A DNA stretch of 64,000 nt, from NCBI GenBank assembly GCA_049509635.1, contig JBEKZS010000011.1, forward strand, positions 141 through 64,140, read 5' to 3'. The DNA is from Roseiarcus sp. Lineage in GTDB: Bacteria > Pseudomonadota > Alphaproteobacteria > Rhizobiales > Beijerinckiaceae. Numbering within the stretch: position 1 is the first letter of the stretch; the number at the start of each line of letters is the position of its first letter. A program made the translations under genes and the position numbers. Positions 34,968 through 52,957 of this stretch are shown here, piece after piece. The notes beneath the pieces were generated by a model that did no database searches, was not told where the DNA came from, and saw only the letters and a program-made list of their open reading frames with translations.

Positions 34968-39182
<4,215 letters not shown>

Positions 39183-39216
39183 CGATCGCGTCGCGGTCGC
39201 CGGCGCCGGGTCGACG

Positions 39217-39245
39217 GAGAGCCGCCTTCGGGCGGCTCTCTTGCG
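39217..39245 (+). terminator. Hairpin after rpoC, likely an intrinsic terminator
   Basis: GAGAGCCGCC-TTCG-GGCGGCTCTC: perfect 10-bp stem with a UUCG loop; U-tail is short. Confidence 0.7.
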
Positions 39246-39405
39246 TCGGGCGGGACGTTCGGCGGCGCGCGGCGGATTTGCCGCGCCGGGGGCCCCGGCC
39301 TCGCCGCGATCCGGTCTTTATTTGGCCGGGAAGCCGCGTTCTCCTGCATCCCGTAACCAATCGTCGCGAGCGTAGGCGCTCGCGGCGGCTTTGCGGGGAT
39401 GGCGC

Positions 39406-39894
39406 ATGAAGGCGCAGTTCGAACCGATCGGCGATCCGGCTTCCGCCGCCGGCGCGCGCGCCCCCCGGTCCGAGCCGCTCGCCCCGTTGCTGGCGGGCGC
39501 GCGCGCCCGCGGCATGGCCGACGCCTTCGAAATGCTCGGCGTCGCCGCCGCTTTCCTCGACGAGGGCGGTTTGGCTCTGCACATCAACGATCGCGCCCGC
39601 CGCCTGCTGGGCCCGCAATTGTGGGTCGACGACGGGCGGCTTCGGGCGGCCGACGCCGATCTCGACGAGGCGCTCGCCGCGGCGATCGAATCGGCGCTGA
39701 ACGCGGGCCGGCGCGGCGAAGCGGCGACGAGCTTCTCGTTCGCTTCGGAGTCCCGGGGGCCCCTGGGGCTGAAGGTGCTGCCGGTGGTCGCGGAGGCGCA
39801 TGACCCGTTTCAGCTCCTGCGCGTCGTCGTCGTGCTCGAACGCCAGCAGGCGGCCAAGGCCGCCAATGCGGCGCGCCGCGACGGCCTGAACTGA
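39406..39894 (+). CDS. Hypothetical PAS-like protein resembling the sensor part of LuxR-type regulators, without an HTH
   Basis: AFEMLGVAAAFLDEGGLALHINDRARRLL...GRLRAAD pattern; GGGG upstream; no C-terminal HTH. Confidence 0.6.
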   Translation: MKAQFEPIGDPASAAGARAPRSEPLAPLLAGARARGMADAFEMLGVAAAFLDEGGLALHINDRARRLLGPQLWVDDGRLRAADADLDEALAAAIESALNAGRRGEAATSFSFASESRGPLGLKVLPVVAEAHDPFQLLRVVVVLERQQAAKAANAARRDGLN

Positions 39895-39966
39895 CCGACG
39901 CAGAAACGCCGCCGGCGCCCGCGCGAATTTTCGCCGCGTCGTCGCGATTTTGTGGTCGCGGAGGGG

Positions 39967-39995
39967 TTGACGCGTTTGGGCGCCGCGAATATGGT
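39967..39995 (+). promoter_or_regulatory. sigma70 promoter of the str operon
   Basis: TTGACG-N17-TATGGT followed by a GC-rich CCGCGC discriminator. Confidence 0.7.
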
Positions 39996-40300
39996 CCGCG
40001 CACTTTCGACAGGCAGTAGAGACTTCATTGTTTTGGGCGACGCGTCCAAAACCCACAGTCTCTAAACGCTGGCGACATCATCGACGAGAAGGACATACCG
40101 ATCGGGCGCGAGCCGGATTGGGTTTGGGGGCAAGATCGACGCTTTTGCGCCGATCCTCTGCGATGGTCGCGCCTTAAGCCTACCGGCTTAGCGGCGCGGT
40201 TTGTTTTGCGCGTAGCTTTGCGGCGCGGCGCGAGTCAATTCGATATTTTGTGACGGCGACGCCGCGAGGCGGAGCGTCGATATGCGACGAAGGGCGAGAG

Positions 40301-40672
40301 ATGCCGACGATCAGCCAGTTGATCCGCAAACCGCGGCAACCCAAGACCTACCGTGAGAAGGCGCGCCATCTCGAGGCGAGCCCGCAGAAGCGCGGCGTCT
40401 GCACCCGCGTCTACACGACGACCCCGAAGAAGCCGAACTCGGCCCTGCGCAAGGTCGCCAAGGTTCGCCTCACCAACGGTTTCGAGGTCATCGGCTATAT
40501 CCCGGGCGAGGGGCACAATCTTCAGGAGCATTCCGTGGTGATGATCCGCGGCGGGCGGGTGAAGGACCTGCCCGGCGTGCGTTATCACATCTTGCGCGGG
40601 GTGCTCGACACCCAGGGCGTCAAGGATCGCAAGCAACGCCGCTCGAAATACGGCGCCAAGCGACCGAAATAG
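40301..40672 (+). CDS. rpsL: 30S ribosomal protein S12
   Basis: [30 protein letters not shown]. Confidence 0.99.
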
Positions 40673-41170
<498 letters not shown>

Positions 41171-41203
41171 GCGGTCCGTCGAGCAGGTTTTAAGGATATC
41201 ATT

Positions 41204-43279
<2,076 letters not shown>

Positions 43280-43339
43280 GGCGCGTTGCGCCGCATGATC
43301 GAACCACAGTCAATCAGGTAGCCAAGAAGGAGTCCGGCC

Positions 43340-44530
<1,191 letters not shown>

Positions 44531-44548
44531 GGAAGCGGCGGTAAGGGA

Positions 44549-44570
44549 CGGACGGGGCTTTCCCCGTCCG
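44549..44570 (+). other. GC hairpin between tuf and rpsJ
   Basis: CGGACGGGG-CTTT-CCCCGTCCG, 9-bp stem with no U-tail (pause, processing or stabiliser element). Confidence 0.6.
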
Positions 44571-44590
44571 CTCCGGTGAGGGATTTCAAG

Positions 44591-44899
<309 letters not shown>

Positions 44900-44956
44900 G
44901 GGAACTCATCGGGCGCCTCTTCGCATTCGCGGATGCGCCCCGAAGGAATATGCGCC

Positions 44957-45679
44957 ATGCGCTCAGGCATCATTGCACAGAAGCTGGGAATGACCCGCAT
45001 CTTCACCGATGCGGGCGACCACGTGCCGGTCACCGTCCTCAAGGTCGAGGGCTGCCAGGTCGTCGCCCATCGCACCCAGGACAAGAACGGCTATACCGCG
45101 CTGCAGCTCGGCATCGGCCGCGCCAAGGTCAAGAACGTGCCGAAGGCCGAACGGGCGCGCTTCGCGCTCGCCAATGTCGAGCCGAAGCTGAAGCTCGCCG
45201 AGTTCCGGGTCAGCGAGGACCGGTTGATCCCGGTCGGCGCCGAGATCACCGCCGATCACTTTCTGGTCGGCCAGTTCGTCGACGTGACCGGCGTGACGCT
45301 CGGCAAGGGCTTCGCCGGCCCGATGAAGCGGTGGAACTTCGGCGGCCTGCGCGCGACCCATGGCGTGTCGGTCTCGCATCGCTCGCACGGCTCGACCGGC
45401 GGCCGCCAGGATCCCGGCAAGACCTGGAAGAACAAGAAAATGGCCGGCCACATGGGCGCCGACCAGGTCACCACCCAGAACCTGCGCGTCGTCCAGACCG
45501 ATGTCGAGCGCGGCCTCATCCTCGTCGAGGGGGCGGTGCCCGGTCACGCCGGCGGATGGATCGCGGTGCGCGACGCCGTCAAGAAGCCGCTGCCCAAGGA
45601 GGCGCCGCTGCCCGGCAAATTCCGCGTTCACGCCGCGCCGAGCGCCGAAAGCGCCCCGGCCGAGCCGAAGGGAGCCTGA
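44957..45679 (+). CDS. rplC: 50S ribosomal protein L3
   Basis: [29 protein letters not shown]. Confidence 0.99.
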
Positions 45680-45683
45680 CATC

Positions 45684-46304
45684 ATGAAGATCGACGTGAC
45701 GTCGATCAGCGGCGATCCCGCTGGCTCGCTCGAACTCGACGATGCGATTTTCGGCCTCGATCCGCGCGAGGATCTGATCGCCCGCATGCTGCGCTGGCAG
45801 CTCGCCAAGCGCCAGGCCGGCACGCACAAGACGCTCGGCCGCGCCGAGATTCACCGCACCGGCAAGAAAATGTACAAGCAGAAGGGCACCGGCGGCGCGC
45901 GGCACGGCTCGGCGCGCGTCCCGCAATTCCGCGGCGGCGGCCGCGCGATGGGCCCGGTGCTGCGCTCGCACGCCCACGACCTGCCCAAGAAGGTGCGCGC
46001 GCTCGCGCTCAAGCACGCCCTGTCGGCCAAGGCGCGCGACGGCGGAATCATCGTCTGGGACAAGGCCGATCTCGCCGAGGCCAAGACCGCCAAGCTGCGG
46101 GCCGAGTTCGACCGGGCTTCGCTGAAGAGCGCGCTGATCATCGACGGGGCGCAGGTCCAGGCCAATTTCGCCAATGCGGCCCGCAACATTCCGCATGTCG
46201 ACGTGCTGCCCGTCCAGGGCATAAACGTCTATGACATCATCCGCCGCGAGAAGCTGGTGCTGACCAGGGCGGCCATCGATGCGCTGGAGGCGCGGTTCAA
46301 ATGA
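45684..46304 (+). CDS. rplD: 50S ribosomal protein L4
   Basis: [25 protein letters not shown]. Confidence 0.98.
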
Positions 46305-49544: not shown

Positions 49545-49787
49545 ATGCCGAAGCGAATTCTCCAGGGCGTCGTGGTCAGCGACAAGCAGGACAAGACCCT
49601 GGTCGTCAAGGTGGAGCGGCGGTTCACCCATCCGCTGCTGAAAAAGACGGTGCGACGCTCGAAAAACTATCACGCCCATGCCGAGACCAAGACGCACAAG
49701 GTCGGCGACACCGTCTCCATCGAGGAGACCAAGCCGATTTCGAAGCTCAAGCGATGGATCGTCGTCGACGGCGCGCTGAAGGCCTGA
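49545..49787 (+). CDS. rpsQ: 30S ribosomal protein S17
   Basis: [27 protein letters not shown]. Confidence 0.98.
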
Positions 49788-50260: not shown

Positions 50261-50577
50261 TGGCCGCCAAGATCAGGAAGGGCGACCGGGTCGTCGTCCT
50301 GGCCGGACGGGACAAGGGAAGGTCGGGCGAGGTCGCGTCGGTCAATCCGCGCGCCGCGCGGGCGATCGTCCAGGGCGTCAACCTCGTCAAGCGTCACACC
50401 CGCCAGACCGCCCAGACCGAAGGCGGCATCATCTCCAAGGAAGCCCCGATCGACCTGTCGAATCTGGCGATCGCCGACCCGAAGAGCGGCAAGCCGACCC
50501 GGGTCGGGTTCAAGTTTCTCGACGATGGCCGCAAGGTCCGCTTCGCCAAGCTTTCCGGAGATCTGATCGATGGCTGA
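50260..50577 (+). CDS. rplX: 50S ribosomal protein L24
   Basis: [34 protein letters not shown]. Confidence 0.98.
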
Positions 50578-51307
50578 CGCAAAATCCGACAAGGGCGCCA
50601 AGCCGGACAAGGGCGCCAAGCCGGCCAAGGCCGACAAGGTCGCCAAGCCGGCCAAGGCCGACGCGCAGGCCGAAGCCGGCAAGCAGGCCAAGGGCAAGAA
50701 CAAGCCGCAGCAGGCCGGCTCGGAGAAGTCCCATACCGGCCCGGTCGCGGTCGTGCCGAAGGACTATGTCGCGCGGCTCAAGAAGCTCTATCGCGACGAC
50801 ATCGTGCCCAAGCTGCTGAAGGAGTTCGGCTACAAGAACGCGCTCGAAGTGCCGCGCCTCGACAAGATCGTGCTCAACATGGGCGTCGGCGAGGCGGTCA
50901 ACGACACCAAGAAGGTCGCCTCCGCCGCGGCCGACCTGGCGCTGATCGCCGGCCAGAAGCCGGTGGTCACCCGCGCGCGCAGGGCGATCTCGACGTTCAA
51001 GGTCCGCGAGAACATGCCGATCGGAGCCAAGGTCACGCTTCGGCAGAACCGCATGTACGAATTCCTCGACCGTCTCGTCACGGTGGCGCTGCCGCGCGTG
51101 CGCGACTTCCGCGGACTCGATCCCAAGTCCTTCGACGGACGCGGCAATTATGCTCTGGGCGTCAAGGAGCACATCATCTTCCCCGAAATCGACTACGACA
51201 AGGCGGAAGCGATGCTCGGCATGGACATCGTGGTCTGCACGACGGCCAAGACCGACGCGGAGGCGCAGGCTCTGCTGCGCGCCTTCAATTTCCCGTTCCG
51301 GCAGTGA
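50570..51307 (+). CDS. rplE: 50S ribosomal protein L5 with N-terminal Lys/Ala/Asp-rich extension
   Basis: [35 protein letters not shown]; 245 aa; ATG overlaps the rplX end. Confidence 0.97.
50588..50662 (+). repeat. Coding tandem repeat in the L5 extension
   Basis: GACAAGGGCGCCAAGCCG x2 (50588-50623), then GCCAAGGCCGAC recurring at a 27-nt period. Confidence 0.85.
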
Positions 51308-51661: not shown

Positions 51662-52060
51662 ATGGCAGTGAACGATCCCCTGGGCGACATGCTGACCCGC
51701 ATCCGCAACGCGCAGATGCGCAAGCGGGGCAAGGTTTCGACGCCGGGCTCCAGCCTGCGCGCGCACGTGCTCGACGTACTCGAATCGGAAGGCTATATCC
51801 GCGGCTATTCGACGACCGATTACGGCAATGGCCGCACGGAATTCGAGATCGAACTGAAGTATTTCGACAACGAGCCGGTGATCCGCAAGATCGAGCGCGT
51901 GTCGAAGCCGGGCCGGCGCGTCTACGCGGCGGTCGACGCGATGCCTCGCGTCGCCAACGGCCTCGGCGTGTCGATCATCTCGACCCCGAAGGGGGTGATG
52001 GCCGATCACGCGGCGCGCGAAAATCACGTCGGCGGCGAAGTCCTCTGCAAGGTCTTCTGA
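51662..52060 (+). CDS. rpsH: 30S ribosomal protein S8
   Basis: [34 protein letters not shown]. Confidence 0.99.
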
Positions 52061-52082: not shown

Positions 52083-52583
52083 ATGTCTCGAGTTGGCAAG
52101 AAGCCCGTCCTGGTTCCCGCCGGCGTCACCGCCCGGCTGGACGGCCATACCGTCGCCGTCAAGGGCGCCAAGGGCGAACTGAAGTTCACGGCCCCCGATG
52201 ACGTCGCCGTCAAGATCGAGGGCGACCTCATCAGCATCGATCCGCGCGGCGACGGCAAGCGCGCGCGGGCGTTGTGGGGAACCTCGCGCTCGATGATCCA
52301 GAACCTCGTCGTCGGCGTGACCAAGGGCTTCGAGAAGAAGCTGGCCGGCAAGAACCTCCAGATGGCGCTCGGCTTCAGCCACGACGTGATCTATCCGATC
52401 CCGGCCGGCGTGACGATCGTCACCCCCAAGCCGACCGAGATCACGATCACCGGCATCGACAAGCGGCAGGTCGGTCAGATCGCCGCCGAAATCCGCGCCT
52501 TCCGCGGCCCCGAGCCCTACAAGGGCAAAGGGATCAAATACGTCGGCGAATTCATCTTCCGCAAGGAAGGCAAGAAGAAGTAG
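52083..52583 (+). CDS. rplF: 50S ribosomal protein L6 with an apparent 11-residue internal deletion
   Basis: [30 protein letters not shown]; 166 aa; GFEKKL joins directly to AGKNLQ. Confidence 0.95.
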
Positions 52584-52594
52584 GGCGTCCCGTC

Positions 52595-52957
52595 ATGACC
52601 AAATCGAACGATACCGGCGACCGGCGCAAGGCGCGCATCCGCCGCGCCGTCATCGCCCGCAGCAACGGGCGCCCGCGCCTCAGCGTGTTCCGCTCGTCCA
52701 AGCAGATCTACGCGCAGGTCATCGACGACCAGAAGGGCGTGACGATCGTCGCCGCCTCCACGCTCGAGAAGGCGTTGCGCGAGACGCTGAAGACCGGCGC
52801 CGACGTCGCGGCGGCGCGCCGGATCGGCAAGGAGCTCGCCGAACGGGCGGCCAAGGCCGGGGTCACCAAGGTCGTATTCGACCGCGGCGGCTATATGTAT
52901 CACGGGCGGGTCAAGGCCCTCGCCGAGGGCGCCCGCGAGGGCGGCCTGGATTTCTGA
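52595..52957 (+). CDS. rplR: 50S ribosomal protein L18
   Basis: [32 protein letters not shown]. Confidence 0.98.

Follow-up and report, generated by a model that had tools for sequence, protein, structure and literature searches.

Ribosomal protein uL6 (L6), the product of rplF, is normally about 177 residues long. In a metagenome-assembled genome (MAG) of Roseiarcus, the rplF open reading frame encodes 166 residues and lacks the near-universal GVGY segment. Does this organism build its ribosome with a shortened uL6, has an allele conferring resistance or slow growth been selected, or did the gap arise while the DNA was sequenced and assembled? We addressed these questions starting from the window, by which we mean the whole stretch of 64,000 nucleotides that was analysed (C13:141-64140). 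The MAG comprises 288 contigs totalling 4.69 Mb, with an N50 of 24.9 kb, no Ns, a completeness of 98.85% and a G+C content of 67%.

The window's rplF lacks exactly 33 nucleotides

Membership of the uL6 family is indicated by two properties of the open reading frame. The product matches Ribosomal_L6 (PF00347) in two stretches, corresponding to the tandem domains of the family (E=2.6e-35, 121.5 bits, cut-off 27), and the gene is flanked by rpsH and rplR, its usual neighbours in the spc operon. The C-terminal domain is incomplete, as residues of its first β-hairpin, with the conserved GVGY turn, are missing. The second Ribosomal_L6 domain begins at profile position 9 of 80.

We aligned the product to 95 distinct solved uL6 sequences. 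The alignment runs from end to end and is interrupted once, where 11-12 residues are missing after KKL and before AGKN. Comparison with an intact rplF allele from the same population, carried by contig L033, defines the loss as exactly 33 nt. These encode the 11 residues from E88 to V98 (EINGVGYRAAV). The coordinates of the gap and its neighbours are listed in Table 1.

Table 1. Position of the rplF gap and of neighbouring features in the window
Feature	Coordinates	Strand	Description
rplE site	50923..50977	+	Intact in the window; deleted in L036 (25 nt) and L039 (55 nt)
rpsH (S8)	51662..52060	+	Upstream neighbour of rplF; exact-match handle for same-population contigs
rplF (uL6)	52083..52583	+	ORF of 166 aa, against 177 normally; Pfam PF00347 match; end-to-end match to solved uL6 chains
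Deletion junction	52341..52343	+	Parental order in the intact L033 allele is AAGCT, then CGAGATCAACGGCGTCGGCTACCGGGCGGCGGT (or placement one base over), then GGCCGGC; CGAGATCAACGGCGTCGGCTACCGGGCGGCGGT is missing here
rplR (L18)	52595..52957	+	Downstream neighbour of rplF; exact-match handle

An initial annotation, made from the letters of the window, had described an L6 short by exactly 11 residues, a junction at 52343/52344 and no second rplF in the window. The open reading frame, the alignment to solved chains and the intact allele all bear out the length. The junction is correct at the codon level; at the nucleotide level it falls at 52341/52342 or 52342/52343, an ambiguity of 1 nt. The claim of a single copy extends beyond the window, since one rplF was found on searching all 288 contigs of the draft genome. 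The missing 33 nt were not found elsewhere in the same 288 contigs.

No repeat or hairpin favouring deletion in vivo was found at the rplF junction. Microhomology is limited to 1 nt, and a repeat-mediated deletion of the 33 nt was rejected. Hairpin-mediated slippage was also rejected: folding of the region is no more stable than that of shuffled controls (z = -0.45).

The missing residues coincide with a conserved hairpin

The intact L6 of the same population was modelled using AlphaFold (pLDDT 85.4, pTM 0.72). In the model, residues 88-98 take in the last part of one strand (83-90), the turn with GVGY and the greater part of the following strand (95-99). The segment is predicted to be the first β-hairpin of the C-terminal domain, and it includes the GYxA loop, which is in contact with the sarcin-ricin loop. 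Residues I89, G91, V92, G93, Y94 and A96 are invariant in 27 sequences, down to 59% identity. When the 166-residue protein was modelled with the same alignment, pLDDT was 67.4 and pTM 0.47, and residues 144-166 fell below 50. Such a drop in model confidence is a weak indicator of stability, but it is consistent with a core element having been removed.

A smaller lesion of the same loop has been described in Pseudomonas aeruginosa. Mesa et al. 2023 (bioRxiv 10.1101/2023.06.13.544509) reported a 12-nt in-frame deletion in rplF that removes GYKA after residue 92. The GYKA loop lies between β7 and β8 of the uL6 C-terminal domain and contacts the sarcin-ricin loop; the ΔGYKA mutant is viable but grows 2.5-fold slower, misassembles its 50S subunit and is highly resistant to aminoglycosides (bioRxiv 10.1101/2023.06.13.544509). 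In our alignment, GYKA of P. aeruginosa 7unr_G corresponds to G93-Y94-R95-A96. Hence, both deletions are in frame and both remove the sarcin-ricin contact loop. They differ in that ΔGYKA comprises 4 residues and was studied in a cultured clinical isolate, by allelic replacement and cryo-EM, whereas the window's loss comprises 11 residues, involves parts of both strands and is seen in a single metagenome assembly, the organism being uncultured and known from a MAG.

The initial annotation had instead invoked rplF lesions of gentamicin-resistant E. coli and of FusE mutants of Staphylococcus aureus, which are small-colony variants. The E. coli lesions, reportedly described by Davies and colleagues in 1998, are C-terminal truncations of L6. 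The FusE mutants carry frameshift, nonsense or start-codon lesions, and rplF lesions are selected by fusidic acid or aminoglycosides (PMC3226684). Both sets are alike in being rplF lesions under drug selection, but neither is an internal hairpin deletion as in the window. The P. aeruginosa ΔGYKA allele is the closer precedent for a resistance reading.

Relatives and the same population encode intact uL6

Full-length rplF matches were obtained in 38 related genomes, 23 of them from the same genus. All span 531-537 nt, compared with 498 nt here. In a collection of 5.8 billion proteins, 114 of the best 120 matches are exactly 177 residues long, and the exact 166-residue product occurs on one contig only. 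Source names of the closest matches assign the organism to Roseiarcus.

Contigs from the same population were retrieved from a JGI metagenome series (3300063202-3300064022, 3300085340 and 3300041432), using the exact products of flanking genes (S8, L18 and SecY) and the intact L6. No paper was found to mention the sample identifiers. The samples appear to belong to a single series, and the communities behind them may not be independent. Seven samples other than that of the window contain an intact 177-residue rplF (L033/L040, L034, L035, L037, L049, L052 and L053), on contigs with 0-7 mismatches per 1-2 kb. Near the rplF site, the window has 0 mismatches to L033/L040 over 2267 nt and 0 to L037 over 1617 nt; L035 has 1 mismatch and L034 has 3. 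Contigs L049, L052 and L053 were compared with L040, from which they differ by 1-7 mismatches per kb. A metagenome scan with one rplF flank returned one contig only, from a 93%-identical relative in which the gene is intact.

Over 17.3 kb, the window and L040 are distinguished by 49 substitutions and two indels. One is the rplF gap of 33 nt and the other a single intergenic base at 49787. The latter (GG versus GGG, relative to L040) lies right after the rpsQ stop codon and is harmless. It is the one other indel across 37512-63767 relative to contigs of the same population, in agreement with the earlier remark that the remaining ribosomal genes of the window show no similar loss. Five further contigs covering 37512-45817 contain no indels. 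The rplF gap is private to this assembly.

The comparison also exposed local features of the population and its contigs. Four sibling contigs (L038, L039, L052 and L053) end or start at window positions 52216-52237, near the strain-variable position 52224. These breaks probably reflect an assembly-graph branch caused by co-occurring strains. Contig L039 matches the window perfectly to ~51778, beyond which it shows the substitutions that characterise the strain of L036 (95% identical); it is a chimera of two co-occurring strains. The window's rplE (50570-51307) encodes a 245-residue L5 with an N-terminal extension rich in Lys, Ala and Pro. Since L5 has the same length on L033, L034 and L040, the extension is real in the population and not a product of assembly.

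Indels are also found elsewhere in the genus. In rpoC (window 36324-36773) there is an 11-residue polymorphism. The short form is present in the window, G007, G005, G002, G010 and G011, and 33 additional nt are present in G001, G003, G006, G008, G013, G014, G015 and G024. We considered the 11-residue gap relative to G024 as a private lesion and rejected this, as it is ordinary lineage variation common to many relatives. The gap was classed as natural and serves as a negative control; hence, the approach distinguishes natural indels from private ones. In rplF itself, single-base insertions cause frameshifts in two other long-contig MAGs of the genus (L108, G007:C22; L109, G022:C3). One of these insertions precedes the site of the window's deletion by 12 nt. 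Both frameshifts are probably consensus errors.

If Roseiarcus, or a subclade of it, had evolved a shorter uL6, the gap would be a lineage trait. All that speaks for such a history is that the open reading frame is unbroken and that the genome has no other rplF. Against it, the full segment is encoded in all 38 related genomes with a match, the database matches are overwhelmingly of 177 residues (114 of the best 120), and the intact gene is present in the same population at 99.7-100% identity. The lineage-specific ribosome variant proposed initially is refuted by these relatives and by the seven other samples, and the deletion is absent from all 38 related genomes with a match. We give it practically no chance of being correct. 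It is also very improbable that the window carries a decaying extra copy while a functional rplF resides elsewhere in the genome. The gene occupies its canonical spc place (rpsH-rplF-rplR), the genome is 98.85% complete and yields one rplF match, and none of its 288 contigs contains the missing 33 nt.

Sibling contigs carry further private deletions

A different rplF deletion is present in contig L031, which comes from another sample and whose 1287 flanking nt are 100% identical to the window. This 45-nt deletion, within L031:483-971, is in frame and overlaps the window's 33 nt; EINGVGYR is retained and 15 residues are missing. Three more private deletions break the reading frame of other ribosomal protein genes. 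In L052, 23 nt are lost from rpsE, within the KGGRRFGF motif. In rplE, L036 lacks 25 nt and L039 lacks 55 nt, and the two deletions have a common left boundary, GTCGCCTC. All four sibling deletions (45, 23, 25 and 55 nt) lie on contigs of 1.3-2.1 kb.

Counting the window's 33 nt with the deletions of 45, 23, 25 and 55 nt, three of five events are out of frame and two are in frame, the latter being the chance expectation. The rpsE and rplE deletions break essential single-copy genes. Hence, three or more of the five deletions cannot represent alleles of viable cells. Moreover, since the two rplE deletions occur at one spot, recurrence at a site is a property of the process that makes these deletions and no sign of selection. 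The G+C content of the affected sites is 78-83% in 41-nt windows, which corresponds to the 89th-97th percentile. High local G+C is suggestive as a factor, but not decisive.

The MAG contains other private indels

Translations of ~400 kb of DNA, taken from two related genomes, were set against the whole MAG, and ~155 kb of coding sequence was matched. The survey identified one frameshift and several in-frame gaps. Two loci outside the window were compared with contigs from the same population. In leuA (C207:1920-1953), an exact 17-nt tandem duplication, TTCTCCAAAATCGCCCA x2, results in a frameshift. Contig L095, from the same population, has a single TTCTCCAAAATCGCCCA copy and encodes an intact LeuA of 559 residues. 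C207 and L095 also show a 20-nt copy-number difference in an intergenic repeat of the TTTTTTGAAA type.

The second locus encodes a NudK/AdpP-like Nudix hydrolase on the reverse strand of C133, ~310 nt from the contig end. Here, 51 nt (RQFRLGAYLESRRASMT) are missing. The loss is in frame, removes 17 residues from the protein core and has a junction microhomology of 1 nt. Six contigs from the same population (five JGI, one Logan) contain the 51 nt, with 0-6 mismatches over 1.2-3.7 kb, and 119 of 119 other top database matches to the C133 protein are longer. We also considered whether an excess of tandem duplications might betray faulty joins. This proved uninformative: exact tandem duplications are no denser in the MAG (8.5 per Mb) than in relatives (12.5 per Mb).

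Origin of the gap

Taken together, the sequence comparisons make it likely that the 33-nt gap is a local assembly or library artefact, and that the organism itself has an ordinary 177-residue L6. We infer that the gap originated in silico or in the library. It would have been introduced at one local spot while the metagenome was sequenced or assembled. Either two sequence ends may have been joined over a short uncovered stretch, or a deleted library molecule may have dominated a thinly covered spot. The artefact is favoured because private short indels recur in the MAG and its siblings, several of them breaking the frame in essential genes. The allele is private to one assembly and the population is intact elsewhere; the other private indels are disruptive and show no enrichment for in-frame events, in the MAG and siblings alike; and the lesion is harsher than the one known to be viable. 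These points determined our weighting.

The SPAdes gap closer requires ends that overlap by at least 10 nt with no more than 2 mismatches. The L031 45-nt deletion fits this rule (TCGGCTACCG/TCGGCTTCAG). The rule fails for the window's 33 nt, for the 51 nt of the Nudix gene and for the deletions in rpsE and rplE, and end-overlap gap closing was rejected as their cause. De Bruijn assemblers do not normally produce junction k-mers that no read contains. Hence, reads carrying the junction may exist, which counts against an artefact. Also on that side, the gap lies on a 64-kb contig, while the four sibling deletions are on short ones, and the MAG is not generally broken, having one frameshift in ~155 kb of matched coding sequence. 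Finally, the gap is in frame, and in P. aeruginosa a 4-residue deletion of the very loop that it would remove is viable and has been selected. Lui et al. 2021 (PMC8172020) associated a lack of read coherence in SPAdes contigs with high G+C and with low 127-mer coverage. The gap resembles such short-read local misassemblies in being a private indel where other assemblies are intact, in being accompanied by more private indels in the MAG and siblings, and in its high G+C context (67% for the genome, 78-83% locally). It differs in that its junction is outside the overlap rule that we tested, and in being known here from assembled contigs alone.

The main rival is a real and recent sample-specific allele. 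By analogy with ΔGYKA, a Roseiarcus sub-clone would have lost the hairpin with its GYRA loop, and would grow slowly and tolerate aminoglycoside-like compounds. On this view, L031 with its missing 45 nt would represent another such allele, of independent origin. Both rplF deletions indeed preserve the frame and extend into the counterpart of the GYKA loop, and loss of GYKA after residue 92 is compatible with life, at the price of 2.5-fold slower growth and with the gain of high aminoglycoside resistance. Lesions in rplF are selected in S. aureus FusE mutants too. The length of the contig suggests that it represents the majority sequence of its assembly, and reads are the normal source of junction k-mers. 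Nevertheless, we regard such an allele as unlikely. It is seen on one contig of one assembly, with flanks identical to those of intact contigs from seven samples. The same data set yields non-viable frame breaks in rpsE and rplE, two of them at one spot, so recurrence implies no selection. Resistance would leave the private Nudix and leuA indels of the MAG unexplained. The loss of 11 residues, including parts of two strands, goes well beyond a 4-residue loop, and model confidence is lost across the C-terminal domain. The bolder proposal, that the 33-nt and 45-nt deletions are both real and represent independent hairpin losses under natural parallel selection in near-clonal peat or soil Roseiarcus, is less likely again. 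Among the three readings offered by the initial annotation, the artefact is best supported, the lineage variant falls, and no second assembly supports a resistance or slow-growth allele.

Implications

If both rplF deletions were real, a ribosome could work with 11-15 residues of the uL6 sarcin-ricin hairpin missing. A wild population would be on the same route to aminoglycoside tolerance as clinical P. aeruginosa. Were the window's gap real, a resistance mechanism described in the clinic, uL6 loop deletion, would extend to an alphaproteobacterium from the environment and to deletions of far greater size. If the gap is instead an artefact, as we consider likely, a public MAG that is probably the representative of its species has at least three private coding indels, in rplF, the Nudix hydrolase gene and leuA. 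Sibling assemblies of the sample series carry deletions in rplE, rplF and rpsE that look lethal. Phylogenomic marker sets and screens for resistance alleles draw on ribosomal proteins. Hence, gaps of this kind could be mistaken for biology.
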